Shown one piece after another: positions 33,293 to 56,464 of a DNA stretch of 64,000 bases. How positions within the stretch are numbered: position 1 is the stretch's first letter; every line of letters begins with the position of its first letter. The notes below the pieces were generated by a model. That model ran no database searches. It worked only from the letters and a program-made list of their open reading frames with translations, and was not told the DNA's origin. Source of the DNA: a virus; IMG/VR virus record IMGVR_UViG_3300050343_000135, positions 1 through 64,000 of that record; one strand, written 5' to 3'. The position numbers were made by a program, and so were the translations under genes.

Positions 33293-33655
33293 TACACTAC
33301 TACTCTATACAAATCAAGCACTCTTTTAATGTGGTCTGGAAAATCAGTATTGTTCCTTACACTTGATGAGCCTTGTTGCTCGAGTGTAGCTCCCTGTATT
33401 GTTCTTCTAGACTTGTGCTCGTCTCGTAAGTAGTATGTAATTAGGTCATGTACGGCCAATTTAAGATCAGAAGGTACAGCTGAGTAGCCAGATCGATATC
33501 TTATCTGTACTGTAATAATCTATAAAACTTGTACCGCAATACTTTTTTGCAAGGTCACTAACTTGTGGAACTATAATATCAAGACGCTGGTCTTCTTTCT
33601 GACCCGTCATGCCTTCTGCATTTTTATATTCCTGTACTGTTATTAAGTCTGCCAT
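33292..33655 (-). CDS. Head completion/head-tail adaptor (frameshifted)
   Basis: MADLITVQEYK..KKYCG; other frame ends FPDHIKRVLDLYRVV. Confidence 0.7.
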
Positions 33656-33659
33656 AATT

Positions 33660-33687
33660 AAAAAGTGGGAATGTTAGGTACATTCCC
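33660..33687 (-). terminator. Intrinsic terminator after the capsid gene
   Basis: GGGAATGT/ACATTCCC stem plus T-run on the - strand. Confidence 0.7.
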
Positions 33688-33708
33688 GAAAACCTTATTG
33701 AGCTAATA

Positions 33709-35750
33709 TTAGCTAGCTTTGTACATCCAAGCCCATTTAGAAGTTGCACCATCAATTAAGTCAGTGAATCCTAATCTCTGTGAAGCCACTAAGACTCTTC
33801 TTTGATTAATTACTTCATAGTCAGATTCTACTGTTACGCCTCTTAATCTTGGCATTACGTAGTTTCTTGGATTAACAGCAACAGCTGCGAACTTAGATAC
33901 TGCTGGTGTAGCGAATTCGTCACAAAGAAGTACTCTTGAACCGAACACTTGTCCAATTTCACCAGATAACTTAGTTGCCATGTCGCCAACTAGGTTAGCG
34001 TCTTGGAACTCTGTATCTTCTAGTAGTTCGTAGTATGATCTTTGTGAAACAATATACACTACTTCTTGATGGATTAACACCATATTTACCCATGTTCTTT
34101 CTCATTTCAAGTAAGTCAGTTGCTACAATTTTATCAGTTGCAAAAGCAGTTGCTGATTGTGTGTAGTCACTGTCATTTCTTGCTAAGTGTAGTAAACCTT
34201 CGAAAGAAGCTCCGCCAGTACCAAATACACCGTCAGCGTCATCACCAGCTAGGATTGAGTTTTCAATTGCTCTAGCGTGTGATCTTACCATTGATTCTCT
34301 AATTAAAGGAAGAATCGGTAAGATTGCATCTTCTTCAGTTTCATTACCTAGGAATGATTGAGAGATAAGTTTTTTAGTTGAAAGAGTTCTTTCAGCCATA
34401 GATACCCCAGCATCGTCACCATAAGTAGCAGACCTCATATCTAAGTTGTCATTTGCTACAGCAGACCCTGAAGTAAATTCAGCGTAACCACTATCTGGTA
34501 AGATTGGGATAATCATGTTTGCAGAAGTCATTGGTACTTCTCTAAATAGAGGAGCTAAGACTAATTCATTTTGAATATCTCTTTCAATATTTAGTTGAAA
34601 CGATTTGCTCGAAATCAGCTGATGAAACATTTACACCTGAATGAGTGTTAACTTTTTCCATCACATTTTTAGCAACTTCACTGTCCCATCCTTTACCAGT
34701 AGCTAAACCAGCAAATTTTGCGTCAACGATATCTTGCTCAAAAGTTTTCTTCCAATCGCCTTGACCGTTTCTGTCTGAGAAATGTCTTTTTGACTCTCTC
34801 ATTTTTACGATTTCTTCTGATTTCTCAGCTAGTTGAGATTCGAGTCCTTTAACAACTTGCTCTAAGTTAGAGTAGTCTTCTTTAACTCTAGACTCAACAT
34901 CATTCATGAGCTTCTCAGCTCCTGTTAGTCCAGCTTCAACTATAGTTTTAGTTTTTTCCTGATCTGCTTCTTCAGCAGCTTTTTGAACTTCCGCTTCGTC
35001 AGTTGCTTTTTGAGCAGCTTCTTCTGCAGCCTTCTGTTCAGCAGCTTTTTGTTCAGCTTGTTTCATTGCAATTTCAGCAGCTGTATCAGCAGCTACTTGC
35101 TTTGCGAATGCCTCAAGATTGAACTCTGAGTTGCTTTCAGGAGATTTATTTTCTTTTGACATATTTGTCTCCATGTTGTGGGATTCCTCCCTTCCTGGCT
35201 GCTCAACATTAACAGCGTCTGCTGATTCTGCTGGGTTAGCCTTATAAAAAGTTTGCTTATACTTGTTGTATTCTTCCATGCTATCAAATGACTTGCTTAA
35301 GCCAAAGGTTGCCCCTTGGTTGCAAGGCACTGATACTACGGAAACTTCAAAAAGCTCTGCGTCCTTTATCTTGTATCCATCGGTTTCAGTCATATAATCA
35401 GCGTCCTTGACTTTGAAACCAACAGAAAAAGCTCCAAGGACACCGTCTTTAATTAATTGTGTTACATCACCTGCAGCTTTTGATATCTTTGCAGATATCT
35501 CTAAACCGTTTTCTGTAACTTGTAAATCTTTTGCACGACCAATAGGTTTGTCGTAGTTGTGATTGAACAAAATAATTGGATTATTTTTGAAATTTTCTAA
35601 TCCACCTTTTGTCCATGCTCCACTTTCAATAATATCTCCAGCTCTATCAAGTCCGTTTGTACTTGCGGAACCTTTAATATCTATGCCACCATCATCAGTT
35701 TCACCTAATGCTTTAAAAGTGCTAGTCCAATGATAAATCTTATTTGACAT
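33709..35750 (-). CDS. Prohead protease fused in frame to HK97-fold major capsid protein (two indels in the MCP)
   Basis: IILFNHNYDKPIG and ELFEVSVVSVPCNQ protease motifs; coiled-coil scaffold; T5 pb8-like EEDAILPILPLIRESMVRSHARAIE; internal GGAG+ATG at 35162. Confidence 0.9.
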
Positions 35751-36004
35751 CTTTCTTCTCCACTTTCTTCTTAGCAGGTGCTTTTTTCTTAACAGGTGCT
35801 TCTTTTACTTCTGGTGCAGTTACTTCTACTGGGTATCTTTTTGAGACTACACTAAGTACTCTTCTCCAAGAACCAAATGCTCTTCTTAATAAGTAATCTT
35901 TAACAGGAACATCATTCCCTTTTGCTTTATAAGCAGGCAAATCCATAGGACCGCCTTCTTTTAAAGTAATCGGAAAGAGCTTTTACCATCATATCTTTTG
36001 TCAT
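35740..36004 (-). CDS. Small basic protein between portal and protease (frameshifted)
   Basis: ATG at 36004; RRAFGSWRRVL motif; Lys-rich tail. Confidence 0.5.
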
Positions 36005-36006
36005 AA

Positions 36007-37226
36007 TTATTCTTCCTCGCTTGGGGCAGCCTCTGTAGGTCTACCTCCTTGTTCTGGATTAGTAGCAGAGCCTGCTATATTTGCAGGTACTCTTGGCTCA
36101 TCAAATCCATCCACAGGTTCTTTTCCTAATGCTTCTCTAGCTTCGTTAGCACTTAATATGCCTGTATTGACTAAAGTAGCATAGTATGCTGCCTGGTCTC
36201 TCAATTCTGGTTGTAAAGCAGGAATCCCTGTTACATCTTCAGACATTGAAAATCCAAAAAATCTTTCTAAAGCATAACTAACTTTTTTAACTATTGGTAG
36301 TATAGTTTCTAAGTAGTATAATCTATGGTTAGGTCTTATGTTTGCGTTATTACCTCCATCCATTAAAATTGATGGTATTCCCATAGCTTCTAGTATAATT
36401 CTTTCATTTGACTTGATTCCTTCTTGAAAGTCTAACTCTTTAAAGTTAATTTCTGTCAAGTTTTCTACTTCAAGTCCGCCATCTAAAAATAGAGGTCTTC
36501 TACCTCCAGATTTAGGGTTATATCTTGCAACCCAGGCTTGTAACATTCTTTCTTTTATCTTTTCAGAAAGAGTGTTTGGTGATTTTTAGTACTAATCCTG
36601 GAACTGCTCCATTCTTAAAAAAGTTATCTTGGAAATCTCTCATGCTTCCTAGTAACTGCATAGTTCTGAAAGCTGGTTTTAATCTTGGTACTCCTCTGTA
36701 TATTGAGTTGAAACTATTTTCTTTTATATGTATAATTTCATCAGGACTGTAATCTATTGAGTTGTCATATGAGTATCTTTCTACGTAGGTTTTATCATCT
36801 GTGTAAATTCTTACTTTATCTGCAGGAAGATGATATAAATGTGCTCCATCAAAATAAATAAAGATGTTTCCATCTATAAGTAAATCAATTATAAGATTTC
36901 TTTTAAAAGCACTTACATCTTGAAAAGGGTTTGGCTCTTTGTTAATAAGTAAATCTACTTTTGACCTACGAATATTTTTTAAAACATTTGTAGTACCTAC
37001 TATCTTTTCTCCGACTAGCAAAAGGTATTTCTGAAACATCATCAACAATCATATTTACTGCTCTATTAACAATTTCTAGTTGTTCATAAGCATTTCTATA
37101 ATTGGTAACTACTTCACGAGAATCAATAGTCATACCCTCATTTCGGGATATTACATACTGAGCAGGATTAAGTTTTTCCTCATCTACTATGGGAGCTCTA
37201 CCTAATAATCTATCATACCATGCCAT
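36007..37226 (-). CDS. Portal protein (three fragments)
   Basis: EPNPFQD..FKRNLIIDLLIDGN, NFFKNGAVPG, GGNNANIRPN, GILSANEARE. Confidence 0.9.
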
Positions 37227-37584
37227 ATTTGTCTCTCTGCTTCTCGACCCATCTTTTTTGTTTCTCTGCGTGTATCAATTTGGGTCGTTTTCCATAAACT
37301 GAATGTAACTTCATATGGTGACTATGGCAGAGTGTGACTGTATCCTTGTAAAGTTCTGTATAGTGTTCATCAATAAAGGCTTCTCGAATCTCTAGTATTT
37401 CTTGTTCGTTTTTAATAATTAATTTTTTCTTTTTTATCCAAGTTTCTAGTAGTTCTGTAAGCCCGTGATAGTGATGAAAATCTAACTGTTCGGTACTTCC
37501 ACAGATATAACAATCGCTTGATTTTTTATATTGTGATTTCGCTTTATCTCGTACGTATTTAACTAAATCTCTTTTGAAATTCAT
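37213..37584 (-). CDS. HNH nicking endonuclease (T5 SciA-like)
   Basis: CYICGSTEQLDFHHY...TLCHSHHMKLHS; sits between terL and portal; own promoter at 37604-37633 supports the start at 37584. Confidence 0.75.
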   Translation of the reverse strand: MNFKRDLVKYVRDKAKSQYKKSSDCYICGSTEQLDFHHYHGLTELLETWIKKKKLIIKNEQEILEIREAFIDEHYTELYKDTVTLCHSHHMKLHSVYGKRPKLIHAEKQKRWVEKQRDKYGMV

Positions 37585-37655
37585 ATTTCTACTCTTAATT
37601 AGAATTATACCAAAAACATACAGCAAATGTCAAGAACTGTTTTTTGCAGGTGTTA

Positions 37656-38958
37656 CTAGAACGTTGTGGCTGTAGTTTCAAATGTATATAACGCATATCG
37701 CATAGCATCAGCCATATGGGATGCCATGTTATGTTTTGGGTTTCTCTTTCAATAAATTAGGGTTGGGATCCCATTGATATTGGTCTAGGGATGATATGGC
37801 TTCTTTGCAGTTTGGTTTACAATAAGGTCATCATTATCTACTATGCCTGCTACATGACCTATTCCATCTAATACTGATTTTTTGGCGTTTATAGTACTAA
37901 TATCATAGTTTTGTGCAAAGTCGTATCTTGTTTGTTGAGCCGCAGAGTCAATATAAATATAATCAATATCCCATTTTTGAATTAATTTTTGGATGTGTAT
38001 TGCGTGCTGTTCTGTAGTTCTTTCTGAGTCCATATACTCGTCTAGAAGATAGTATTTTCTTTCATCCCAGTCATATGCAATTACACAAAAAGCTGTAGGG
38101 TCTTTGTACCCTACATCAAGTCCTGCAAAAACATCCATATTTTTAACATCAATTTGAGATAAGTCTGCTATACATTTTCGTGATTAAATGCCCATACCTG
38201 ACCTTCATAAACATTAAAGTCTGCCATATACTCTTGGCAAACTCATTTGCTGACATTGTCTTTTTTGCTTCTATAATATCTGATTCTGATACACGAGGAT
38301 TCTCATGATAAGTTGCTTTTACGGAGCACCACTCTGGAAACTCTTCGCTGTACCCTCTGTAGTAAAACTCTGCAAAATAATTATTTCTACCCCTTGGAGT
38401 AGATATAAAGATTGCTTTTGAGTTTTCTTTGTCTAGTGTGGGACTGTAGTGCAACATTGAAAGCATCCCTCCCATCTGTAGAGCTGCCTCATCGAATATA
38501 ATGAGATCGTATGACTTCTACCCACAACTGAATCAACTTGGTTAATGGAACCCATACGAATCGTAGAATTATTTGAAAGTTCAATAACTTTATCTTTTGC
38601 ATTGTCTCTAAGTACCTCTAAATCAAAATGTTTAATAAGATTTCTTTGTAAATCAAATGAGATTTGCGATAATGAATAGTTAGGTGACATTAATAGTACA
38701 TGACTGTTCAGGTACTAAACAAACTAGTTGTCCTATTATATTTGAAATGTAAGTTTTGCCTTGACGACGAGAAACAGCCGCACAAACAAAACGATATTTA
38801 GGATTGTTAACAGCATTTATAATTGCTGTTTGGGAAGTGTTGGGCTTAATACCTAGTAGATCTAGATAACCCTCAATAGGTAGCTTTACAAATCTATCCT
38901 CAGAAGGAATGTCCATTAAGTACTTACTTTCTATGTCTGTTCTGCTTATCTCTATCAA
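37656..38958 (-). CDS. terL: Terminase large subunit (fragmented by indels)
   Basis: SRRQGKT Walker A, FISTPRG, GLDVGYKDPTA nuclease motif, SHMADAMRY. Confidence 0.9.
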
Positions 38959-39191
38959 TGTATTGTCTCAGGTGGGAATATGTCGTTATAGTCATCAGAG
39001 TCTTCTAATAGACCTGAATCTAAGAGGATATTATATAAGTAACAGTAAGAAGCTGAAACATGCTTTAGCTTCTCTTCGGAAGGGGATAGTTTTCTTTTCT
39101 CTGAAGCATCCATTAACTGGTTCAGAAACTTGTTAGCGTAAGTTATGTTCTCTTCTAACCATAACTTTCTGCCGTCTTGTTTTGCGCTCAT
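38955..39191 (-). CDS. Hypothetical protein
   Basis: 78 aa ORF coupled to terL. Confidence 0.5.
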   Translation of the reverse strand: MSAKQDGRKLWLEENITYANKFLNQLMDASEKRKLSPSEEKLKHVSASYCYLYNILLDSGLLEDSDDYNDIFPPETIH

Positions 39192-40254
39192 TTTCTACGT
39201 TTTAGTCCTCTAGTATTTTTGTGATTTCGGAGGTAACTTCTTAGATCCTCCTTTACCTGCCCAGAATACTTTATTTGCCCAGTAAGCCGCGGACGACTTA
39301 CCTTTGGCAATATTTTTTCCGTGTCGGGCTTTGAAGCTTTTTCTAGCTTCAGGACTGTAATTGTGTCCCATGCCTTGTGCACCAAAGCGGATGATTTTCA
39401 CCTTTCCGCCAACTCTAACTCCTACTACAGCTTTCTTTGTTCTGTGTTTAGGTGTTCTTTTAGGTTTATTAAGTCTAGAAAGCCCAGCTCTTTTGAGCCT
39501 TGCTTTTTCTGCTTTTGTTAGTGCCATTAGACTCTCTTACCAAATCTCGCTCTTGGGGGGTTTGTAGTCTTACCATACCTTGGTCCAATAGGTTTAGCTG
39601 CAGCTTTGTATCTCATTGCTTCTACACCGTATGGATTTTTAGTATTAACCAAAGCTCCTGCTGCTGCATTCATATCTCTGGTAATTCCTCTTTTTAGTTT
39701 ATGTTTTCTGATCTTCTGGGTATTGTGTTTCCCAGTAGGTCCTTGTAAAAAAACCTGCCATATTTCTCTCCTTTTGCTTAGCGTTTACGTCTAGTAGTAC
39801 GCTTCTTTCTTTTTGCGAAGGTTCTTACCATTGTAGGCTTACCTCCGACTCCTTGTTTAACAGATCTTTTCCTGCGAATTGCTGAACGAATCTGTGTTTT
39901 AGTCATTCTAGCGGCTTTGGCTCTTGGTACACATTTGGGATATTTTCCTTTCTTGGAAGTTTTACGTCCACAAGGCATGTATCCACCGCCTTTCTTAGGT
40001 CTTCCATATATCCACCCATTTTTCTTTAAACCATTTACTTAGGCCACCTTTAGGTTTTGCCATTATTTTCTCTTACGTCCAGTACCCATACGATACCTTC
40101 CGCCTTTGGCTTTGTATGTTTTTACAAGCCAGCCATTAGCATACGCTGATGGATATACTTTAAACTTGCGTTTGGCTTGTGCCTTGATCCTAGCATATAG
40201 CGTAGGATTTGTAGGCACAGGCTTTTTCTTAACTGCTTTTCTTTTTCTTGGCAT
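39188..40254 (-). CDS. Four consecutive small, very basic proteins (39188-39527, 39527-39761, 39778-40063, 40063-40254)
   Basis: K/R-rich ORFs with IIRFGAQG..RKSFKARH..SAAYWA, KWFKEKWVD..PCGR..YPKCVP and KFKVYPSAYANGWLVKTYK motifs. Confidence 0.65.
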
Positions 40255-40255
40255 T

Positions 40256-40688
40256 TTACTCTGGATCGCCTGGAACCCAGTATGGATGTTCCCCATCCAC
40301 ATTCTCTAGCATTTCCATGGCCTCTGCGGTATAGTCCGCAATGATTTTATTTGGACCTTCAAATTCGACACCAGCTGTGTCCCATTCAACAGTTACAGTT
40401 AGTTCATTACCATTTATGGCAGTAACTCTAGAGTCTCTCCATGTTCTACGATTACCGTTCTCATTTTCAGGACCGTATATTCTCCATAGCTCATTAATCT
40501 CCATCTAAAGTGTCCCAATTTAGTACTCTAACATCTATTGCAATGTTTTCACCAATCTGATTCTCATCAAAAGAGTCCTCTTCTATTGTCATATGGAATG
40601 CAAAATCATCAATATAATATACAGTACCGTCTTGGTACCCATTATCATTGTATGCTCTTACGTTGTGTCCAACCTTCGGCAACGCCAT
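40256..40688 (-). CDS. Two small acidic hypothetical proteins
   Basis: Overlapping ORFs 40256-40504 and 40494-40688, with SD GGAG. Confidence 0.5.
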
Positions 40689-40826
40689 TCTATTCTCCTA
40701 TATTCTGAGTAGTAATTTTAGCGTCTTTTTGAGCTTTAATCATAGCATCTTTGATGTCGACTTTGCCATCTCTGTTCTGGTCTTTGCCTAGTTATGATGT
40801 TCCATATAATTCATTAAATATTCCAT

Positions 40827-40970
40827 TTACTTTTTCCTTTTTAGTATTGCTCTCTGTAAGGCTTTAGGAAGTTTTTTCTGCGCTGCAGTTAAACCCTTCT
40901 TCTTTTTACCTTTTCCTTTTTTCTTTGGTCTTCCGACCTTTGAACCGTATGTTCCTTTACCTCTTGGCAT
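40827..40970 (-). CDS. 47-aa protamine-like basic peptide
   Basis: MPRGKGTYGSKVGRPKKKGKGKKKKGLTAAQKKLPKALQRAILKRKK; SD GGAGG. Confidence 0.65.
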   Translation of the reverse strand: MPRGKGTYGSKVGRPKKKGKGKKKKGLTAAQKKLPKALQRAILKRKK

Positions 40971-41229
40971 GATCACCTCCCCATAGTCCTTTCGGACACT
41001 TTGCCTTTTTTATTTGTACTTTTAAAGGCATGTAACATTTACATATGTTACAATAGTTAAACTTTGGCACTAGTTCTGGACACTTTCTTACAAATGTCAA
41101 GTCTAGCCTGTTGGTTGACGTGAGTAAAATCTAGCGTGCATCTTTCTGTATTGTAGCTTACGCCTACTCTTGTTACCGTCTATAGTCTCTAAACATATGT
41201 ATCTACCTCTCTTTTCTTGTAGTCAAGTA

Positions 41230-43200
41230 TTATTTTTCGATGGTATATATTTTAACTGGTTCCGATTTTCCTTTTACAGTTACATTCATCTAAAAACTTA
41301 TAGTCAAATCCATCTACTAAACTGTGTTCAGATATTATTAAATCTGCATCATAGTTCTTACAACTTGATTCTAACCTAGCAGCAAGATTAACAGCATCAC
41401 CCAGAACGGAATAGTCAAACCGAGTACTACTACCAAAGTTTCCAACAACGCAGGCCCCGTATTGATTCCAGCTCCTGTGTTAATTTGGTCAAGGCCCTCT
41501 TCCTCTAAGTGTTTCATTTAATTCTCCTAGTGCTACTCTCATTTCAAGATAGCTGCTTCTGTGGCTTTTCTTTCTTGTTCTTCTACATCTAGAGGAGCGT
41601 TCCAAAAGCCATAATGCAATCGCCCATATATTTATCAATTGTTCCTTCGTGTTTAAGAATTATCTCAGTCTGGTTGTCTAGAAAACGATTTATAAGTCTG
41701 TGTAAGACCTTGTGGGTCTGATTGGTATTTTTCAGAAATTGGTGTGAATCCTCGAATATCAGAAAAAAGAAAAGTGAGTCGTTTTGTCTCCCCACCCAAT
41801 CTCAGTAATGTGAAGGGTCTTTTTGTAATTTTTTTACCAAAGCAGGGCTAACATACGTCCCGAATTGTTGTTTAATTCCATTCTCAAGAAAACTGCGTAA
41901 TGAAATTCCTGAAAGTTATGATAGCTCCAGAATAAAAACCCGATAAAATTGTGCCAGAAACGTCAAACTAAGTAAGAAGATTTGTACATTTCCAGGGTTA
42001 AAGTATATAAGGCCTCCAATAGTAAGTGCTAATACTGGAAGTGACAGCCATATACGAGATGCTGTAATCCAAAGTAATAGTAGAGCCAGAAGGGCGGCTC
42101 CTAGCTCTACTGCTACACTCCATGTCGGTTGATGGATGGGCTGTTTCCTTCTATAAGTGAATGAAGTACGTTTGCTTGTATTTCATGAGGGTATACTGCT
42201 CCTTGTGCTGTAGGCACGGGATTGGTTACACCTTCAGCAGTTACTCCAAAGATAACAAAGGGAGCAGGTATAGGATTCTCCATGTACTCTGCTGCAGTTT
42301 GTCTATAGAAAACATTTTGTTGAATCCATACTCTTGCGTTTGCGTCTGTATGTATAAGTGGATAGTTTGGTATACGTACCCATTCTATGCCACCTTCGCT
42401 TGTCTTAATTTGATAACTTGGATCACCGACACCAACTCTCAACATCTCTAACGCAAAAGAGGGATATAATCCGTCTTGGCTACTTACGACTACGGGAAGT
42501 CTTCGTACGACTCCGTCTACTTCTGGGCTTGAGTTTATTAGTCCCTACGCCTTCTGCTGTTACTTGTAACTTTGGTAGTTGTCTTAAAATTCCGGGATAG
42601 TTGAATAGCCATTCTTTTGGGTCACCTCCTAGTTGAGCAGTACCTACATGAGGCCCTGCTTTTGATGCCTGTGTTGAAGCTGCATAAGCTAAAACACTTG
42701 GTTTATTTGATAGTGAGTAGGCAAGTGTGTTGTCGTACTCAATACCGCGTAAGTCGGGATCGGGCATGAGAATCGTAAAACCGGGAACACCCGATGTCAT
42801 GTCTATCATGCTTGCGAATAGGCTTCTTGGTAGTGGATAACCTCCGTAGGCTTCTACTATCTCTTCATCTAAATCTACAAGAAGTATGTTTCTCGTTTTG
42901 TAGCATGTTTCTGTTAAATTTGCACCTAGACATGCTTCAAAGATAATTCGTAAATGTTTCCATTATAGTTCAAGGAGAAAGTATTAGGAACTTGTTTATC
43001 CTCAAAATGTTTAGTCTCTTTTAAATAAGGGTTCCAGATTAAGTATTTATGTAGTCCTTCATGAGAAAATATCGTACTATTATCAAGTTTGTTCATATTA
43101 GATCCCATCCATGATTTGCTATAGCGTTAAGTATAATAAAGATACAAGTTGCCATATGTGTAAACCACCAAATAGTTCGTATGATAGCTATCTTATCTGC
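41230..43200 (-). CDS. CHASE2-domain membrane class III adenylate cyclase (heavily frameshifted; start approximate)
   Basis: [56 protein letters not shown]; upstream GGYPLPR and [16 protein letters not shown]2-type motifs plus TM segments. Confidence 0.8.
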
Positions 43201-43310
43201 TTGAGAATCAGTTTCTCCTACTTTCTCTCCAAGGGACTTTAGCCCACAAGTCTCCAGTATTTATTCATTGTCTATAATTATTTTTGTATTGTTTATTACG
43301 GCTAAAGTTA

Positions 43311-43610
43311 CTAGGAAGTATTGGCAAAGAGTACAAAACTTTCATCTTCTTCCCAAAATATTCCTCCGTATCTTGCAAGTTCAGTCCACACTAATTTATG
43401 TGCTATAAGTCTTGTCAAAGAAGGGTCTGCAGGTAAAAAAGGATTTGCTTCTGATGCGTAGCCTTGTTGTACTGCATGATAAGTAGTAAGTACATCTAAT
43501 GTATTGATTACAAAGTAGTACTTATGACTGGGTCTTTCAAAGTCAATTCTCATTTGGAACTTGCTACGTTCTATGAGTTTGCCGTCTATCTCTATTTGGT
43601 ATAGTCCCAA
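43311..43610 (-). CDS. Hypothetical membrane protein
   Basis: TLDVLTT...EANPFLP motif. Confidence 0.45.
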   Translation of the reverse strand: MGLYQIEIDGKLIERSKFQMRIDFERPSHKYYFVINTLDVLTTYHAVQQGYASEANPFLPADPSLTRLIAHKLVWTELARYGGIFWEEDESFVLFANTS

Positions 43611-44756
43611 GGAAGATCAACCTCCAGATTGACGGATGCGAATAGTGGATTGACCACCAGAATTAAGAATAATGTTATATGCTTTACCATCTTGCTCAAT
43701 TATTATATTATAGCTTGTCTCACCATTGAGATCTAAGTTGTACTGATTGTGATGACGCTACGAATAAGTAGTTATCTTTTCAGCGTCCCCAAAAGTTAGT
43801 AATTTGTGTAGTTGGATCTTGTCCAAACAATGTACCTTGTATATCAAATTCTGAAAAAAGCTTGATGCTCCTCGTTGTTCTGCTATTGCAAGAGCATCTA
43901 GTTCTTCGATAACTTCTAATAAGTCTTCGAGAAAGTTTACATCTAAGTAATCTATATCAAGTTCATTAAAAGCTAAGTTATCTTCTGTCAAGGTAAGTCT
44001 ATATCTAACCCGTCGTAAGCGAGGTAATCGACATCAAGAATATTGTCATGAGAGTCATCATTTCCAACTCTGTCCTGCAATTCATCTTCTTCTTCATTTT
44101 TAGGAGGGCTTACTATAAGCATATTGTCTATGATGTCTAAAGTGATAAGTCTAGTATCATTGGTTTGTAGTTGGTGTACTTTCCCACATACTAGTAACAG
44201 TAGATTCATAAGGTTTATTTAATATGACTTCTCCCATAGCCTGTTGCTAACTACAATCTCACCTGAGGGAAGTCCCGTATTTGTGTCTGGTAAGTAAGTA
44301 TTACTAAACTTCTACCCAACTCATCTACAGTAACTGTGAAGTCAGTTCCACGAATTGCAATACTGTGATGTTGGTGTTTCGAGATCTTAATATTTTTCTT
44401 TATTAATCTTCACCAATCCACCTGTTATAAATCGTGCTGTTCCACTTGCAAACTTTCATCGACATCTGTGACTTACTAGGGATTGGGTCAAAGATTACTT
44501 TGTCTATTATAAGTTTACTGTGTTCTGTTAGTCTGACTACTGAATTGTCTAGGAATGTTATACCTACTCGCCCATTAGCTGTACGTACATCATCCATTTG
44601 CTCAATGTCAAATCCTAAGTCCGTTTCGTAGGGCTTGTCTCTAAGTACTTGCCCTACTCCACGTAGTTCTGTAATGCTTCCTATATCAGCATGAAGTGGT
44701 AGTCCCACCATCATTCTGAATAACACAAATATTGCTATTGCTCGCATTACTTTCAA
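43610..44756 (-). CDS. Secreted FecR-domain protein (fragmented)
   Basis: Signal peptide; DDVRTANGRVGITFLDNSVVRLTEHSKLIID; IAIRGTDFTVTVDELG; acidic LDIDYLDVNFLEDLL tail. Confidence 0.75.
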
Positions 44757-45403
44757 TTTTCAACCAGTCGGCTGCTAAAGTTGACTGCTGTTTAATAACC
44801 GCAGTATTACTACTCTCCCTCTAAGTCGAGGTAGAAGTATTTAGCATCGCTTGAACTAGCTCCATATCCGGATTGGATAAAAGTTAAGTTATTGCTGTCT
44901 CCAAGAATATCCATATACATAGTAGCATAATCTAGCATCTATGTCTACAGTTGCATCATTACTATCACCATCGATAATCCAATCAATGTCTAAGTAACTT
45001 GCTCCTGAAACTTCTGCAATGTCTATATCTGCAATGTTGAAGGAACCAGTGACATCAATGTTAATATCATTGCTGTCTGCTGTGTTTAGCCCGGTTGTGT
45101 CCATGCTAAAGTCCCATTCATTGGAGTCTCCATCAAATTCAAAAAAGCCAGTAAAGTTATCACCAAATATTCCATCGGTGAAAAACTTATTAGAGCTTCC
45201 TATTTGATTGATGTCGAGTGTCATTGTTGATCCATTTAGAATTGCTGCTGTCATTGAACCTGTAATTGCATCATCACCACCAATTATATTGCTAGATCCG
45301 AGCTGTTCAATATCAATAGACTTGCATTATCTCCTGTCTGGTCAATATAGATTTCGTTGTCTGCGAACAGACCAATTGATAAAAATAAGATTAAAAACCT
45401 CAT
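44750..45403 (-). CDS. Curlin-like secreted beta-repeat protein (frameshifted)
   Basis: MRFLILFLSIGLFA-DNEIYIDQTGDNA; repeats IEQLGSSN, INQIGSSN, DGDSN. Confidence 0.6.
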
Positions 45404-45404
45404 C

Positions 45405-46271
45405 TTAGTCTCCCATATAGTACTTCCAGTACCCTTGTTCCTGTCCTTGCGATACCTACTAATTCAGCTACTGCTGTTTCAATGGCTGCTTGTATTGCTA
45501 TATACTTAGGCTTCGTTCATGGCGTTGCCAGTTTCGAACTCAATCAAGTCATTATCTGAATGAAACCTAAAGTAATCGGTTACTGACTAAGCCCTACGGA
45601 GAGGATTGCTTTTGAAGTAAGGATGTCCAATAAGAATTTCTCCTGTACTCACAGAAACCATTCTTATTGATATCACCACTTTATCCTCACGATATTGCTT
45701 AGAGTTTCCTATACCTAAATAGCGGGCTCCAACTCCCCCGGTTAGCAAGTTAGTATTATAATCTACTAATACCTCCTTCTAAAATAAGACTCCAGCATAC
45801 AGTAAGTGGTAACTGTTTGTCTTTCGTCATCAAATTTTTCACGAGTAGAACGAATTAACTGACGCTCCTTAGTTAGGTGGTCTAATCCTTTTCTTTCTAC
45901 TACTTTGAAGAAATTTTGATATGTTTGAGTGCTCTTATTAAGTAAGCTTCTGGAGCTTGTGTTATGGCACTAGAGAAATCTGCGATTCCATCTCTTGATT
46001 TTCTTTGACCTGTTAGGTCTTCAAATTTATATATAGCAACAACGGGCGTTCTTGCCGGTAGGGGTAGATTTTGTATTGCTTTTGTTACTGGTTTTTCAAG
46101 TATAGCGTCTCCTGAGAAGCATTTTGCTTTACTTACGACAATGTTTACTAAGATATTTGTAGTCGTTGTTCTGGATTCCATCATACAAGGAGATACATAA
46201 CCGATAATATGCCAGTTTGCACAACTAGAAACCAAAGTCGCCAATAGGGATAGTAATAGTAGTTGTCTCAC
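45405..46271 (-). CDS. csgG: Curli secretion channel lipoprotein CsgG (frameshifted)
   Basis: Lipobox LVSSC; VVAIYKFEDLTGQRK..FSSAITQ; VVERKGLDHLTKERQLIRSTR; GGVGARYLGIG. Confidence 0.85.
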
Positions 46272-46746
46272 CTGTTGCTCTCATTAAATATGGTCATTGT
46301 TATTGTAATTCCATCTGTTGTCCATGTAATTCAGATTATCATACAATTGAAATGATCCTTCCTCTGCAGGGTTTTCTCCGAATAGGCTATCAACTAGCTG
46401 TCGGGATAACTGTGCATATACTCTACTTTCAAAGTTCTTAATAAATCTTGCGAGAGTTGTATTATCTGCTTCTCTCTTTGCTGCGTCTGCTAAAGCTTTG
46501 ATCTCAGCTTTTACTGCGTCCTTTTTTGTTTGTTCTTGTGAGTCAATCGTTAAGTAATGACTTGATGTTCCCGAGCCTGAGAATGAAGGACTCTTAAATC
46601 CGAACTTGATTTCATCTGCTTGCTAGTTCCCATATAAGTAGAGGAAGTATAGTGAGCCACCACCAGTGTGTAACTGGTTGGTACTCTTTCTTATTAGACA
46701 AATTGTCTGCTGTTCGTTGAAATGACTTCTCTTTTATCTGTCTTCA
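46240..46746 (-). CDS. csgF: Curli assembly protein CsgF (frameshifted; ends approximate)
   Basis: DEIKFGFKSPSFSGSG..HYLTIDSQE...NFESRVYAQLSRQLVDSLFGE; directly upstream of csgG. Confidence 0.7.
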
Positions 46747-47283
46747 TTTTCTTTCAATTGTAAAACTGTGTCTAGTTTCTTTTGGAGACGAATCATATCG
46801 TTATCCAACATTCTTATCTGGTCTATTAGACTAAGAATAGTCATTTTCATATCTTCAATTGCAGGATCAATCTTTTCTGTTATAGTAGTCCATACAAAGT
46901 ATACGAAATACCCTAAACCGACCATTGCAACAATTGGAAAACCAAACTGCTGAATTGCATCAATCACGTCTTGCATCTATACTCCCACTCTCTACAAAGT
47001 TTTCTGCTCTAGAGATTCTATCTAAATCGGGTGTAAGTCCAAGTGCAGTACTGACGCTCATGTCTATTCGAATCATATCATTGTTCATAGTCTTAATACG
47101 AGTAATTAGCATACTTGAAATACCTTTGACTTCTTGAGTATCTCCAACTACATCATCCATTATTTTTCGTATGATTAAAAAGATAAAACCGCCCATGAAC
47201 AATGCGGCGGCTATTGGTGCTCCTACTTGAGCAATAACATCAAATATACCTAGCTCTTCCATGGACACCACGGTAAGACCCAA
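46734..47283 (-). CDS. Two paralogous small single-TM/coiled-coil proteins
   Basis: GFPIVAMVGLGYFVYFVW..IRMLDNDMIRL and GAPIAAALFMGGFIFLII..IKTMNNDMIRI. Confidence 0.65.
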
Positions 47284-47455
47284 TATTTATAAAACATTTA
47301 TTATCTCCTGATTAATTGCCATACAACCAAACATACCGCCAAAGACCACTAATTGTACCACACTTGCGTATGCTACCTGTCTCATTGGATGAATCTGTAC
47401 TATCTTCTCTATCCAGCTCTCCGAAGGCGATAAGTTTACTGCTTGTAATATCTTT

Positions 47456-47773
47456 TTAGAATCCAACGCTTACTCCACACCCACATCTGTAGGTTTCCTT
47501 TGGATTAATAAAAACAAAACTTTCATTTAATCCCTCTATTTTATAATCTAGTGTTAATCCTTCTATGTACGGGGCGGAAGTCGGGTCGACTCTAAATCGA
47601 ATCATCCCCCAATCCAGTACCAAATCACTTGGATAAGTTTCACGACTAAAATCAAAACTATACTCCATACCGCCGCAGCCGCCCCCAGTAATACCAAGTC
47701 TAAAAGACGGGTTCTCCTGTTGGCCTGCTTTCTGTACAAGTCTAGTATACGCTTCATTTGTTATTTCAATCAT
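47456..47773 (-). CDS. iscA: Fe-S cluster A-type carrier IscA/HesB
   Basis: GGGCGGMEY and CGCGVS motifs. Confidence 0.9.
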   Translation of the reverse strand: MIEITNEAYTRLVQKAGQQENPSFRLGITGGGCGGMEYSFDFSRETYPSDLVLDWGMIRFRVDPTSAPYIEGLTLDYKIEGLNESFVFINPKETYRCGCGVSVGF

Positions 47774-48065
47774 CTCTTTTCCAACTTATATCGGACTTGG
47801 TCTCAATAGCGTCCTGAGCCGCCTGTATGTAATCTCTATCTTCGTCAGAGAGTACAGACCAGAATTTACTTATAGTTAATGTATGTTCATAAACTTCGTC
47901 GGGTTCTTGAAAATGATAGTCATTTTCCATCATTTCCTGGAGCTTGTCCATTCTTTGATTTATCTTGGCTCTTAGTCCGAAGATTCTTTCCCAACCATCA
48001 TCATACTTTTTGTTTGACGATTTCGTTGTGAGTGTATCTCCTGTTATTTCGTTTTTTGTTGCCAT
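47766..48065 (-). CDS. Hypothetical phage protein
   Basis: MATKNEITGD..YDDGWERIFG. Confidence 0.55.
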   Translation of the reverse strand: MATKNEITGDTLTTKSSNKKYDDGWERIFGLRAKINQRMDKLQEMMENDYHFQEPDEVYEHTLTISKFWSVLSDEDRDYIQAAQDAIETKSDISWKRDD

Positions 48066-48110
48066 TTTCTATTACCACTCTTACGACTCTTTGTATTCGG
48101 CCGCTTTTCA

Positions 48111-48524
48111 TCATATTGTTAAATTTTTTCCACATTTGTTTTCCCAGTTCTCAATTGCTTGTTTAATTGAGTCTTCGGCTAAAACAGAACAGTGTAGTTT
48201 TATGGGAGGTAATTCTAATGCCTCCGCTATGTCTTTATCTTTTATTAGTTTTGCTTCTTCTATTGTTCTGCCTTTCAGCATTTCTACGAACATTGTGGAA
48301 GAGGCGATTGCACTACCGCAACCATAGGTTTTAAACTTGACATCTATTATCCTATCAGTTGAGTCTAGTTTAAGTTGTAGTTTCATTACGTCACCACAAG
48401 CGGGAGCGCCTGTAATGCCTGTTGCTACTTGGGGGTCTTTAGGGTCGAATCTTCCGACGCTAAACTGTTTCGGACTATTTAAAACTTCATAAAACCTTTC
48501 GGTGACTTTTTTACTGTACGCCAT
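48111..48524 (-). CDS. iscU: Fe-S scaffold IscU
   Basis: GAPACGDVM, FKTYGCGSAIAS, LPPIKLHCSVLAED (three Cys ligands plus LPPxK). Confidence 0.95.
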   Translation of the reverse strand: MAYSKKVTERFYEVLNSPKQFSVGRFDPKDPQVATGITGAPACGDVMKLQLKLDSTDRIIDVKFKTYGCGSAIASSTMFVEMLKGRTIEEAKLIKDKDIAEALELPPIKLHCSVLAEDSIKQAIENWENKCGKNLTI

Positions 48525-48984
48525 CAGTGTTCTTTAAGAGTTTTTCCATTAACTTTCCATAGTTACCGGATCCGAAACTGCCATCATTTACTTGAATATT
48601 TGTTTGTTGTTTGATACTCGTAGCCTGTGCTTTTTCTAGTTCTGCTTGAGCCTTGATTTCGTCCATTCTCATTTTGTGTGCCATTTGAAGTAGGTCTGCC
48701 AGGTCTTTACTAGTATAAATTTCTGACTCTTCTGCTTCTTCCATTTTTTTATCGATTAGTGTATCTAGTGTATCTGCTAGTTTAAATCTATTTCTATATC
48801 CCATATCTAAATAGACAGTGTCAATATATTGTTTGACTTCCCTACGGTTTAGCATTTCGCTTATAACGTTTTGCTTTACTCCTAATCTATGGCTAACAAC
48901 GGATATAGAGCCGTGCTGCAAATATGAATTTGCGATCTCTAACCCTTCTGGACTTATTTTTGTTGTTAATGCTACGCTTGACAT
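48511..48984 (-). CDS. terS: Terminase small subunit (T5-type)
   Basis: ISPEGLEIANSYL..EVKQYIDTVYLDMGYRNR..NYGKLMEKLL; last gene before the strand switch. Confidence 0.75.
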   Translation of the reverse strand: MSSVALTTKISPEGLEIANSYLQHGSISVVSHRLGVKQNVISEMLNRREVKQYIDTVYLDMGYRNRFKLADTLDTLIDKKMEEAEESEIYTSKDLADLLQMAHKMRMDEIKAQAELEKAQATSIKQQTNIQVNDGSFGSGNYGKLMEKLLKNTDGVQ

Positions 48985-48990
48985 AGTATA

Positions 48991-49019
48991 ATTATACTAA
49001 AAATGGAACCATATGTCAA
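48991..49019 (-). promoter_or_regulatory. Sigma70 promoter; predicted leaderless terS transcript
   Basis: TTGACA-N17-TATAAT; ATG is 7 nt from the -10 box. Confidence 0.8.
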
Positions 49020-49190
49020 GAATTATTTATCCATATGTATCATTATGATACTACACGGCGCTTTTTATATACTTGCAAATTTTTTAAAGTTGTACGTGCG
49101 GGGGAGCCTGAGCGTGGGTGTAAATGTCGGTCTATGAACCCCCCACCTATGCCGACCAAAAATTGAACAATACCCCTAGAAGGAACAGAG

Positions 49191-49262
49191 ACGCTCTCTA
49201 AGGCTCTCTAATGAAAAAGAGGTGCATAGGCATTAAAAAATAAATAACGCCTTAGAGAGCGT
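49191..49262. repeat. 14-bp perfect inverted repeat at the strand switch
   Basis: ACGCTCTCTAAGGC (49191-49204) / GCCTTAGAGAGCGT (49249-49262). Confidence 0.8.
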
Positions 49263-49788
49263 TTTTGCTATGATTCGCGATATATATCATAATAGGTCTA
49301 TCGTTAATGCGACTAAATAACGGCTAGATTCTCGGCGGGTTTATAAATATTACTGCCCAATGAGATATAAATTACTACCTTGCATATTTAGAAAACAAGA
49401 TTAAACGCTGTTTTAATTGGTGAAATACTTCGGTAAAACTTACAACGATTAGCTTAGGATTTAGGCTTTATATATTCCCAATATATAGAGTCCCATGAAG
49501 CGGAACTCTCGGAACAACGAGACAAAATAAAAATTAAAAAACTAACTAACTACATAGAGGTAAATAACTATGAAAAAGAAAAAGAACTATAAATTTAAAC
49601 TCTATCAGATGGTCAACGGAAAAAAGGTTAATTACGGCTCAACGCCTAGCATTAACTTTGCACGTGCTTCTGTAAAGAGACAACGAGAAAAAGGTATTGA
49701 GGCTTTTTGGATACCTTGCATTTATAAATAAACTAACCATAAAGGCTCTTAGGCACTCGCTAAGAGCCTTAAATTAAAGGGGGGTCTT

Positions 49789-49998
49789 ATGACTCATTCA
49801 GAACTAAACGAACTCATTAGAACGGCACACACGCTGTCTGATGATGATTTACTAATGGCATTTGAGCAGGTCGGCATAATTGCTGATTTTAATACTTGCT
49901 CGTTATCAATGGAGGAATACAATCTAATTAAGGCTGTATATTTCTTACTTGATTCAATGTGCAAGAATAGAGAATTAATAACTAATATAGAGGTTTAA
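49789..49998 (+). CDS. Hypothetical pre-early-like protein
   Basis: 69 aa ORF after a hairpin, with G-rich SD. Confidence 0.5.
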   Translation: MTHSELNELIRTAHTLSDDDLLMAFEQVGIIADFNTCSLSMEEYNLIKAVYFLLDSMCKNRELITNIEV

Positions 49999-50220
49999 AA
50001 TCTATAGGGTTAGAGTCGTTACCTAATACAAAAACGACTCATTTAATGGAGGTCATAAAATGACTATTATGAAAGAAAAAAAGCCAACTCTTAAACGTCA
50101 AGAGGTGGTCGAATTGGTACTCGATAAATTGAAAGAGCAAGGTATTGAGGATATGACAATATTTGCAACATATAAGAGATTAAATCTTAAAGGCTTGTTG
50201 CATTTTTTAGAGGTAACAAA

Positions 50221-50988
50221 ATGAAGATTGAAAGAAAATTAAATGCTTTGGTATTAGATACCGAAACGTGCTTTAAATCAGAAAATGCCAATATCATTCT
50301 TGAGATTGGTTGGACTGTTGGAAATGTACTTGATAAAACTGATATACCTACTTCGCGTAGGTATATTGTTGCTGATACTTTATTTAATCCTGAATTGCAT
50401 TGGCACTCTCAAAAATTGAGTGCCATTCATTCTGAACTATCAGATGCACCCGAGGGTTTAAGAGTAAATTATGGTAATGATATGAGGTATATAAAATACA
50501 TGAAAGAAGCTTATAGGCTGTCATGTTTAGGTGGTGAAGCATTGGGCGAAGTTGTTCTCCCCTGGGCTAGAATTCTTGACCAATTAAACAAAGATTTAGC
50601 CATGAGCGATTGCATAGGTGCTTATAATTTCCCTTTTGATTTAAGGGCGATTCAAACAACTACCAAACGCTTTCATCATCATGCTTATAATAATATATAT
50701 AAGATTCCGCATTTTTGTCTTATGCAAATGTCGGCAAATGAAATTGTTGATAGATGGTATTTCAAAAAGATAGATTCTTTAACCGAGGAGGAGAAAATAT
50801 TATTTAAATCTAAATCGGGCAAGAATCTAGGCTACTCGGCTGAAATAATGGCTAGGTATATATCTGAAGATTTAGGATATATCGAGATGCACACAGCCGA
50901 GGAGGACTCTAAGATTGAATATGAAATCATGCAATACTATTTTAATGATAAAGAGCTAGGGATGATAAATTCTTTAGCGACTATCTAG
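50221..50988 (+). CDS. DEDDh 3'-5' exonuclease (C-terminus probably frameshifted)
   Basis: LVLDTET, AYNFPFD, HTAEEDS motifs. Confidence 0.8.
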   Translation: MKIERKLNALVLDTETCFKSENANIILEIGWTVGNVLDKTDIPTSRRYIVADTLFNPELHWHSQKLSAIHSELSDAPEGLRVNYGNDMRYIKYMKEAYRLSCLGGEALGEVVLPWARILDQLNKDLAMSDCIGAYNFPFDLRAIQTTTKRFHHHAYNNIYKIPHFCLMQMSANEIVDRWYFKKIDSLTEEEKILFKSKSGKNLGYSAEIMARYISEDLGYIEMHTAEEDSKIEYEIMQYYFNDKELGMINSLATI

Positions 50989-51075
50989 GAAATATGTAAA
51001 AGCGGTGTCTTGGACAAAAATCCGAGATGGCTATAAAAACTATAAACAAAATGAACTATTTAAGGAGGTTCAAAA

Positions 51076-51579
51076 ATGAGCGATTATAAACAATTAGAAC
51101 TCCCTTTCATTGTCGAACATGAAAGGGGGGTTGATTATCAATTTGATAGATACTTTCGACACATGGAAGCATTTAACAAAGATGCCGATACTGTCTTTAT
51201 CTATGATTTAGATTATACGACTTTTGAAAGACCGAAAATATTCACCCACAAACCCACCTATTCATTTATAGGTGGTTTTAAATGGGAATATAGCCTTGCA
51301 TGGTATATCTTTTGGGACTGCTTCATTGTGTCTCTATTCGATAAGCCCTTACCCTTACTAAAGGATATGCAAAAACATATGCAACTCGGTAGAAAGGTTG
51401 GCATTTTCTCGGCTCGTTCGGTTAAATGGTATACGGCTTTGTGGGTAAGGTTGAAAATCGGAAAGGTTGAATTTCTAAAATTCAGACCAAAGAACGACAA
51501 CACCAAAGATGATATTTTAAAAGAGACGGTACTTGCAAGAATGTTGCGAGGAACATTCATTCTTTGCTTATGCTTCTAG
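51076..51579 (+). CDS. HAD-family (PNKP-type) phosphatase
   Basis: IYDLDYT, IFSARS, RPKNDNTKDDILKE motifs. Confidence 0.65.
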   Translation: MSDYKQLELPFIVEHERGVDYQFDRYFRHMEAFNKDADTVFIYDLDYTTFERPKIFTHKPTYSFIGGFKWEYSLAWYIFWDCFIVSLFDKPLPLLKDMQKHMQLGRKVGIFSARSVKWYTALWVRLKIGKVEFLKFRPKNDNTKDDILKETVLARMLRGTFILCLCF

Positions 51580-51651
51580 AATCGTGGCATGGGATGATAG
51601 ACCCGACATTATCAAGATGTATAAGCAGAATGATGTTGAGGGGTTTCTCGT

Positions 51652-52128
51652 ATGATAGATATAACAATGACTGTTCTTTTTTGGGTTGGGGTGACTTCGG
51701 TTGCCTCGGCTCTTGCTTACATTCCAAAAGATATGCGACTTTTTGAGGTTGTTATAACTTTGGGTAATATATTAATCTTATTAACTAGCCCATTGATGCT
51801 ACAATGGGAATTCACTATCTTTTTAATGACTTTCCTTATTTGGTCGGCTCAAATTAAAATGGGTAGAGATGCTAAAACTTATGGAGGTGCTAGAAATGGC
51901 TACAAATAGACAAAAACAAAATAAGATAAAATTAGATAAATGGCTTTCGCAATGCTTCGGCTACAAGGTGGCAAAATGGTTCGATTTAATCCTGTTGGCT
52001 TTGGTTTCGTGGGCATTGTTTATATTTGCAATGTGGGTGGCGTAATGAAACGATCACTTATTAAATATAGCTTATATGATCTATGCGATTTATTAGCGGA
52101 AGCAATTGCAAAACCTAATGAGAACTGA
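51652..52128 (+). CDS. Small membrane and hypothetical proteins
   Basis: ORF 51652-51909 with 2-3 TM segments and ORF 51940-52128. Confidence 0.45.
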
Positions 52129-55479: not shown

Positions 55480-55824
55480 ATGGATTTATGGACAACAATC
55501 AAACACTTAGAAAAGGAACACAATTGCATAATATATGGCATACTTGAACCACAAGGTGTAGCAGAAGATTTATCTAGCTGGAGTAGTTTTGATGCTGAGG
55601 AGCGAACAGAAGATTTCATAATGGACTCTTACGACATTCCAACGCAGTTAATGCTTGAAGCATTTGAGAACGCATATAACAATGTAAGTTCCGAGTACGA
55701 CAACTACAACACTATGCTAGAAGTAGTAGGCGATTACATAGTCGCAAAGTTAAAAGCAAAGCAGTGTGTATGTGGCGCAGTAGAATGCCCAGACGAGTAC
55801 GCACACACAACGAGTGGGGTGTAA
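55480..55824 (+). CDS. Hypothetical acidic early protein
   Basis: Promoter 55426-55454; SD AAGGAG; C-terminal CVCG..CPDEYAH motif. Confidence 0.65.
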   Translation: MDLWTTIKHLEKEHNCIIYGILEPQGVAEDLSSWSSFDAEERTEDFIMDSYDIPTQLMLEAFENAYNNVSSEYDNYNTMLEVVGDYIVAKLKAKQCVCGAVECPDEYAHTTSGV

Positions 55825-56113
55825 GATGGCAGACAAATTTACTAAGGGAGTCATGGGCGACCACAGTGCAAAAGTGATGCCTTTCCCCACCATTGACAGA
55901 GTCTCTTTTTATAGGAGCATATGGATAGAAGTATGACAGCAATAGCAGAGTTAAATGTGCAGTTGCAACAAGTACAAGACATGCTATTCAATGAAGTAGT
56001 AGAGTTCGAGACATGCGTTGTTGAGTTACAAAACGAAATACAACGCTTGGAACGACTACTAAAAAATGAACAAACAATAAACAAGATAGGTAAAGACACA
56101 TAGGAGGTGCAAC

Positions 56114-56335: not shown

Positions 56336-56464
56336 GATGGAGTGGTAAAGCGAAACATAAATCGCACAAAAAGAAAACTGCACAAGGTGATTCACATGGC
56401 AGAGTTAGCTTAAATATGAACAAAAACAAGAAGCGTAGCTTCAAGAAATACAGGGGCAAGGCAG

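Follow-up and report, generated by a model that had tools for sequence, protein, structure and literature searches.

Why would a tailed phage encode a curli secretion channel beside a FecR-domain protein and a CHASE2 adenylate cyclase, and why can most of these genes not be read as single open frames? Both questions are raised by the minus strand of IMG/VR virus record IMGVR_UViG_3300050343_000135 between positions 47283 and 41230. The record is a linear sequence of 74,214 bp with an estimated completeness of 75%, and we analysed its bases 1-64000, hereafter the window (64,000 nucleotides). An earlier note on this DNA had described the stretch as a sensing module that spans the cell envelope. 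Our results indicate that it is very probably the viral module for type VIII (curli) secretion already described for SAR11 phages, in a copy that is riddled with errors in this record and carried by a T5-like phage.

Gene content of the module

Pfam was run on stop-to-stop pieces of the window, and the proteins of an intact relative were mapped onto it. Together, these two approaches recovered on the minus strand all of the domains that the earlier note had named, and they bore out the tight co-orientation of the genes and their phage context. The mapping gave the order of two small membrane proteins, CsgF, CsgG, a curlin-repeat protein, a FecR-domain protein, a DUF5658 protein and a CHASE2 cyclase (Table 1). 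The longest open piece in this interval has 160 codons and only the genes of the two small membrane proteins are intact. A three-frame translation of the interval nevertheless reveals recognisable protein sequence with repeated frame jumps, and the start of the cyclase near 43096 was read from this translation. The module is located between a pair of iron-sulfur (Fe-S) assembly genes and the small genes ahead of the terminase.

Table 1. Features of the module and of the region upstream of it (positions in the window; relatives as described in the text).
Feature	Position	Strand	Remarks
Sigma-70 promoter, TTGACA-17-TATAAT	48991..49019	-	12/12 consensus matches; heads the unit leading into the module
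First gene of the unit, 157 amino acids, no known family	48511..48984	-	No Pfam match; conserved left flank in T5-like relatives
IscU-like Fe-S scaffold gene (NifU_N)	48111..48524	-	Intact; E 2.8e-39
IscA/HesB-like Fe-S carrier gene (Fe-S_biosyn)	47456..47773	-	Intact; E 1.3e-12
Small membrane protein 1	46960..47283	-	Intact; one N-terminal transmembrane helix and a helical tail; 64% identity to the L084 homologue
Small membrane protein 2	46734..46976	-	Intact; 70% identity to the L084 homologue
CsgF-like gene	46225..46733	-	Broken, spread over three frames; 3 frame-breaking indels relative to the nearest relative
CsgG-like outer-membrane channel lipoprotein gene	45405..46271	-	Broken; 16 frame-breaking indels
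Secreted curlin-repeat (CsgA/B-like) gene	44686..45403	-	Broken; 3 indels; 74-97% identity in pieces
Secreted FecR-domain gene	43617..44756	-	Broken; 20 frame-breaking indels
DUF5658-like small membrane protein gene	43261..43690	-	Broken; Pfam and mapping from a relative
CHASE2, three transmembrane helices, class III (IIIb-like) adenylate cyclase	41230..43096	-	Broken; 16 frame-breaking indels

The two small membrane proteins match each other at 30-32% identity and therefore appear to be paralogues. The first of them matches phrog_18771, a family of unknown function, and its single helix was assigned from hydropathy. In the literature on viral type VIII secretion systems (T8SS), the first small protein is labelled 'HK' (PMC9599517). 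We found no support for 'histidine kinase' as a label for the two small proteins: they have 83-97 amino acids (aa), belong to no Pfam family, fall into virus-only clusters and, unlike what the published label implies, gave no kinase family in our scans.

Relation to published viral modules

The same gene order is present in Pelagibacter phage HTVC008M (GenBank KC465899), which encodes two 93-aa proteins, CsgF, CsgG, a CsgB-like protein, proteins of 368 aa and 441 aa and an 'adenylate/guanylyl cyclase'. The CsgF/CsgG cluster has also been described in pelagimyophages (PMC7029224) and in the OM43 phage Melnitz (PMC9004378). The statement in the earlier note that such genes occur in marine T4-like phages is thus borne out by the literature and by HTVC008M. 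For myophages and for podophages of the HTVC023P type, Wittmers et al. 2022 (PMC9599517) reported a set composed of HK, CsgF, CsgG, CsgA/B, FecR, an optional second curlin and an adenylate cyclase. These authors pointed out the absence of CsgE, and also that bacterial curli operons do not include FecR or the cyclase; they proposed that the module has been transferred between phage families. The module is therefore not novel, as its order is that of HTVC008M and the combination of T8SS, FecR and cyclase is already in PMC9599517.

The module of the window shares with the T8SS module of SAR11 phages the same genes in the same order, an optional extra gene before the cyclase and the lack of CsgE. 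Its CsgG is 47% identical to that of HTVC008M. Unlike the published carriers, a T4-like myophage (147 kb) and a podophage (58.8 kb), its carrier belongs to a T5-like siphophage lineage of ~105 kb. In our literature search, no paper connected the module with T5-like phages or Demerecviridae, and nothing relevant emerged on CHASE2 in phages or on T5-like phages of SAR11. Three aspects were not found in print: the T5-like siphophage carrier, the swapping of a cassette extending from CsgF to FecR with the cyclase remaining tied to the backbone of the phage, and a conserved perfect sigma-70 promoter with IscU/IscA-like genes upstream of the module.

The carrier phage

A virion module of siphophage type occupies the minus strand of the window from 35750 down to 1. 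Among the PHROG matches in the window are a fusion of head protease and capsid, the major tail protein and minor tail proteins, together with a J-like fibre of 1521 aa and fibres of collagen-like type. The major tail (tail tube) protein presents ~32% identity to 907 records of T5-like phages (of Vibrio, Aeromonas, Salmonella, Escherichia and Klebsiella). Because of these matches, the label of T5-like siphophage appears fair, and the carrier is best described as an uncultured marine T5-like siphophage (Demerecviridae-like).

We then scanned IMG/VR for close relatives, which yielded 228 loci with the CHASE2 piece and at least 115 loci with the CsgF piece. One relative genome, G001, was judged complete, with direct terminal repeats and a length of 105,272 bp; another, G002, spans 75.5 kb. 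G001 contains both a homologue of the tail tube protein and an intact module, such that a T5-type tail tube, a genome of ~100-120 kb and terminal repeats are all found when the tail protein of the window and G001 are taken together. Neither the island nor the tail region had a megablast match among GenBank phages. The sole hint of a SAR11 host is a 14.6-kb contig in a metagenome-assembled genome (MAG) of Pelagibacter, whose FecR is 75% identical. Because similar contigs fall into unrelated phyla, the binning of module-bearing contigs into MAGs is unreliable for host assignment.

The curli components

The CsgF family (PF10614) was matched by a window piece at 46287-46622 (E 9e-11) and by the protein of L084, the closest intact relative (E 3e-19). 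A phmmer search with the viral CsgF against PDB sequences gave no match. For CsgG, three pieces of the window (45903-46280, 45769-45969 and 45590-45778) matched profile positions 2-50, 52-83 and 99-144, respectively, and Pfam and mapping together indicate that the CsgG gene of the window is broken into four or more pieces. The family (PF03783) was detected with E 4e-47 in intact relatives, whose CsgG aligns over ~210 residues with E. coli CsgG-CsgF (PDB 3X2R, 6L7A and 6SI7; E 2e-42) and shares the FSTAV channel-loop motif. Sequence-based prediction assigned to CsgG a signal of lipoprotein type ending in Cys, and signal peptides to CsgF and to the curlin-repeat protein.

The viral module therefore shares with the E. 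coli channel the lipoprotein-type signal on CsgG and the Pfam match of CsgF. Unlike the E. coli curli system, it has no CsgE, CsgC or CsgD, its CsgF lacks a sequence match in PDB and its substrate matches a single Curlin_rpt repeat (PF07012), weakly. This repeat was identified in the L084 homologue, and the pieces of the window showed no Curlin_rpt match in Pfam. CsgE (PF10627) was absent from the T5-like genomes G000, G001 (complete) and G002 in a search that detected the CsgE of E. coli as a control.

The FecR-domain protein

The FecR match was weak in the window (44406-44759, E 0.015) and reached E 2.6e-11 in an intact relative. The protein presents a cleavable signal peptide, with no membrane anchor and no anti-sigma part. 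It does not have the architecture of FecR-type anti-sigma regulators (cytoplasmic domain, helix and periplasmic FecR) and would be secreted like the bacterial COG4254 type. Lacking an anti-sigma domain and an anchor, the viral FecR-domain protein therefore cannot act as an anti-sigma factor.

A structural model of the protein has a mean predicted local distance difference test score (pLDDT) of 64.5. The N-terminal domain, at ~80, is followed by a disordered, acidic linker and then a small domain of beta structure. In this model, the N-terminal beta domain resembles the periplasmic cell-surface signalling domain of PupR (PDB 6OVK and 4M0H), with E 3e-4 and a root-mean-square deviation of 3.0 Å over 151 columns. 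Unlike in the FecR and PupR regulators, a signal peptide stands in place of the cytoplasmic anti-sigma domain and the membrane anchor. The cell-surface signalling domain of PupR contacts an outer-membrane protein in its own system.

In bacteria, a FecR domain adjoins a CHASE2 cyclase in ~50 of the 68 loci, and CsgG or CsgF was never found within 8 kb. The claim of the earlier note that such pairs occur in bacteria is thus confirmed, and two are known from the literature: the Burkholderia 'BiofilmReg' system, with a LysM-FecR protein and a CHASE2 kinase (PMC5192318), and S. meliloti SMc02177 (PMC5498481). What the viral module shares with the bacterial pairs is a secreted FecR-domain protein encoded beside a CHASE2 membrane sensor. 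The bacterial homologues cover only residues ~40-150 of the viral FecR protein, at 30-38% identity; an acidic linker and a beta domain at the C-terminus are particular to the viral protein, and the bacteria have no curli cluster around the pair. A complex prediction for the periplasmic CHASE2 domain with the mature FecR-domain protein scored 0.00, which is uninformative either way.

The CHASE2 adenylate cyclase

CHASE2 was detected by Pfam at 42483-42962 (E 4.5e-5) and 42116-42544 (E 6.6e-12) in the window, and with E 1e-28 in an intact relative. The Guanylate_cyc domain (PF00211) was detected at 41255-41479 (E 0.0015), and with E 9e-20 in an intact relative. All of the catalytic motifs of the cyclase are readable in the window, spread over three different frames. 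Based on hydropathy, the protein would be composed of one N-terminal helix (residues 1-19), a periplasmic CHASE2 domain (PF05226), three helices (~297-370) and a cytoplasmic catalytic domain. The best solved match is the catalytic domain of P. aeruginosa CyaB (PDB 3R5G, class IIIb; E 9e-36); in the alignment to it, the viral cyclase retains the two Asp residues that bind metal as well as the Lys, the Asn and the Arg. Unlike CyaB, the viral cyclase has Ser for Thr at the second specificity position and CHASE2 as its sensor.

Residues D420, K462, D466, N543 and R547 were invariant across 22 viral sequences. The earlier note had assigned the specificity for ATP to the Lys of IDKY and the Asp of RFDY. 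The Lys is indeed conserved, but the Asp is not at the specificity position; the second specificity position is occupied by the Ser of DYSVLG, which aligns with Thr in CyaB and with Gly in the guanylate cyclase Cya2 of Synechocystis. A Lys paired with Ser or Thr is the class IIIb pattern, and the viral enzyme is predicted to be a Lys/Ser cyclase of class IIIb type. An inactive cyclase, which would have undermined the proposal of the earlier note, seems at odds with catalytic residues that are invariant in the 22 viral homologues.

Proposed function

We consider it likely, by analogy with the stand-alone FecR/CHASE2 pairs of bacteria, that the FecR-domain protein and the CHASE2 cyclase constitute a signalling pair from periplasm to cytoplasm and that the cyclase makes cyclic AMP (cAMP). 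On balance, we also favour the view that the curlin-repeat protein is exported through a CsgF-capped CsgG channel in the outer membrane of the host to form surface fibres. In an infected host, the phage would thus build a CsgG channel with its CsgF cap and export the curlin-repeat protein, while the secreted FecR-domain protein and the CHASE2 sensor would raise cAMP, to be read by a host receptor. The cNMP-binding domain (PF00027) had no match in three phage genomes, and because these genomes encode no cNMP-binding protein, the cAMP would act on receptors of the host. That the state of the secretion channel is coupled to the activity of the cyclase is a tentative suggestion, which we regard as doubtful. 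The complete circuit of the earlier note, from the outer-membrane pore through FecR/CHASE2 to cAMP, is a hypothesis.

Alternatively, CsgG might be the pore itself, used for lysis timing in the manner of a pinholin or for the uptake of larger solutes or cofactors, rather than a fibre exporter, with the cyclase and FecR serving an unrelated manipulation of the host. Previous work on Melnitz (PMC9004378) and on pelagimyophages (PMC7029224) has suggested such roles of a pore, the gatekeeper CsgE is not encoded and Fe-S assembly genes share the transcription unit. However, the secreted curlin-repeat protein and CsgF adjoin CsgG at every locus where these genes were found and the three co-vary, which is hard to explain without export; we therefore consider a mere pore unlikely and retain fibre export as the preferred function.

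Cassette exchange among relatives

Among phages of the T5-like lineage, DNA identity is 78-89% in the cyclase and in the regions flanking the module, whereas it falls to scattered patches of 65% from CsgF to FecR. The breakpoints in identity are located at the start of CsgF and at the start of the cyclase. In pairwise comparisons of 67 distinct loci, the identities of CsgF, CsgG, curlin and FecR correlated with one another (Spearman 0.72-0.79), which describes a pattern and is not a test, as the pairs of loci are non-independent. The T5-type cyclase cluster was paired with four CsgG clusters and, conversely, the CsgG type of the window was paired with three cyclase clusters. This pattern suggests that FecR travels with the secretion genes and that the cyclase follows the phage backbone. 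The region at the start of the cyclase marks a recombination hot spot at the border of the cassette.

A broader reading would make CsgF-CsgG-curlin-FecR an exchangeable and diversifying cassette, with at least four deep allele types on near-identical backbones and types shared with other phage lineages, while the cyclase stays with the backbone. The fibres would then be a strain-specific mark at the surface of infected cells, serving to exclude rival phages or to capture sibling hosts, and the secreted FecR-domain protein would act within the secretion machinery in place of the missing CsgE, informing the cyclase of the state of that machinery. We judge this combination of proposals to be rather improbable.

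Several details of the locus were observed in individual contigs. When L084 (6483-9942) is compared to L010 and L023, the block from CsgF to FecR is only 31-49% identical at the protein level and the cyclase 85-94% identical. Contigs of the L023 type possess an extra 264-aa gene between FecR and DUF5658, without a PHROG family. The segment 42892-43258 around the start of the cyclase is mosaic: its nearest relatives are L088 and L067, versus L002 and L003 for the rest of the cyclase. Contigs from other runs join 42891 to 43259, 43085 or 43805.

Origin of the frameshifts

Relative to its nearest relatives, the module presents ~60 frame-breaking indels in 6 kb. Nearly all of them are 1-2 nt long and all six larger genes are hit, so the warning about frameshifts in the earlier note was justified. 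There is a strong bias toward insertions (52 versus 8 deletions), and the density varies from 4 to 18 per kb. The indels sit in mixed sequence and not in homopolymers, which rules out errors of the homopolymer type. An alternative genetic code was also ruled out as the source of the short frames, the breaks being changes of frame and not in-frame stops. Among ~100 IMG/VR relatives, the genes are closed and full-length: the cyclase has a median of 596 aa and is full-length in 113 of 114 loci, and the intact sizes are 275-347 aa for CsgG and 361-409 aa for FecR.

We further aligned to positions 34000-52000 of the window the contigs of four metagenome runs, marine or viral, that came from as many studies. 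These contigs showed zero differences from the window at 46960-47502 and 48172-49812, and they were ~98% identical in substitutions within the cyclase gene. At 41813, 41923, 41944, 41965, 41998, 42129, 42310, 42388, 42546, 44933 and 46279, the contigs of most or all four runs presented the version of the relatives. The indel sites derived from these contigs coincide with those seen relative to the IMG/VR contig L010. The genes for the terminase, the portal, the protease-capsid fusion and the tape measure are also split by single-base indels (relative to L023 and G002). One indel, at 34069, was missing in contigs of three of the four runs; in two of those runs, other contigs share the version of the window. 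Because no viable phage could lose its terminase, portal, capsid and tape measure together, the indels appear to be consensus errors of the record, densest in the module, rather than the product of gene decay. We infer that the bias toward insertions is compatible with low-depth single-molecule reads.

The opposite possibility, that the island is truly decayed and pseudogenised cargo of this particular phage, is very unlikely. Frame-breaking indels do peak here, and the flank at 46960-49812 is free of errors relative to independent contigs. However, look-alike indels disrupt the virion genes listed above, and both the excess of insertions and the ratio of gaps to mismatches (~1:1.5 against ~98% identical contigs) are unlike natural divergence. 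In addition, the indels are absent from contigs of most or all four runs and from the ~100 IMG/VR relatives. A decayed island, which the earlier note had named as grounds for giving up its proposal, is therefore not what we find: the frameshifts extend to virion genes and are private to this record.

Other genes of the window show the same kind of disruption. Genes at 25576-29198, 33304-35759, 36010-37244, 37686-38958, 51181-51643, 55823-56127, 56456-56861 and 58197-58471 each occupy a single open frame in G002 but are broken across two or three frames in the window. This set comprises the tape measure, the capsid fusion, the portal, the terminase and several genes of the plus strand, and the patches of indels extend well outside the module.

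Junctions of the module

A homologue of the left-flank gene recurs in 50 loci, and a T5-like terminase stands beside the module, on its right side, in 88 loci. Because both recur in dozens of independent contigs and the complete 105-kb genome has the module, the junctions are genuine and not chimeric. The concern over chimeric junctions that accompanied the earlier note is thereby removed, the module being intact in G001. A search for repeats detected none at the flanks of the module that would point to a mobile island, and an Rfam search of 39000-50000 found no family. When one genome was scanned for each prokaryote species, the six-gene layout turned up only on 12 phage-like contigs in MAGs of unrelated phyla. 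These MAG-filed contigs are probably misbinned phage contigs.

It is extremely improbable that the module is bacterial DNA misassembled onto a phage contig: although its genes are bacterial in type and close copies exist in contigs labelled as MAGs of Pelagibacter, Maricaulis, Sphingobacteriales and others, the left-flank gene and the T5-like terminase both recur at the junctions, a complete terminally repeated phage genome has the module, MAG contigs from unrelated phyla share the viral six-gene layout and are most simply misbinned phage contigs, and true bacterial loci with FecR and a CHASE2 cyclase lack CsgG and CsgF in their surroundings.

The six-gene module was seen on contigs filed under MAGs of Pelagibacter, Neomarinimicrobiota, Sphingobacteriales, Maricaulis, Planctomycetaceae and others (L163; L165, L168; L169, L171). 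On a 60.8-kb contig of Neomarinimicrobiota, the module is present at both ends, as expected of a terminally redundant phage genome. Upstream of the module, L084 encodes a gene with a PAPS-reductase domain and a gene for a non-specific endonuclease (3533-4588 and 5125-5712); the endonuclease gene is absent at the corresponding place in the window.

Evidence against the interpretation

Several observations weigh against the interpretation developed here. The identities of the cyclase correlated with those of CsgF, CsgG, curlin and FecR at only 0.18-0.42 over the same pairs of loci, which is a poor fit to a tightly co-evolving FecR-CHASE2 interface. The support for the curlin repeat is weak, at 23.8 bits for a cut-off of 20.7. 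The fibres, the pore and the cAMP are predictions for every viral copy. The indels were attributed to errors on the basis of relatives and of other runs, and their density is higher in the island, at ~10 per kb, than from terminase to capsid, at ~1-6 per kb.

The promoter and the Fe-S genes upstream

The module belongs to a promoter-headed unit that is composed of the 157-aa gene, the IscU-like gene, the IscA-like gene and then the curli module. The promoter is conserved: of 49 related loci, 43 have a site with 11-12 of 12 consensus matches at most 90 nt ahead of their homologue of the first gene. The earlier note had placed the module in a late operon, a designation that is unsupported, as a perfect sigma-70 promoter heads a unit opening with Fe-S assembly genes. 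The presence of a pair of Fe-S assembly genes beside a FecR-domain gene may bear on the link to iron that has been speculated on in the literature. Within the virion module, at 37604-37633 on the minus strand, another sigma-70 promoter fully matches the consensus and has a -10 extended by TG; it is located just upstream of a small gene that precedes the portal gene.

Implications

The record is unsuited as a reference for the genes of the module, for which intact copies are available in the complete genome behind L095 and in contig L084. As the module has already been described, our analysis does not make a new kind of system testable. It does, however, add the T5-like phages as a third and very different carrier lineage, with at least 88 retrieved loci, and thereby broadens the argument that the module moves between families of phages. 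Finally, the swapping of the secretion genes and FecR as a unit, without the cyclase, constrains models of which component signals to which.

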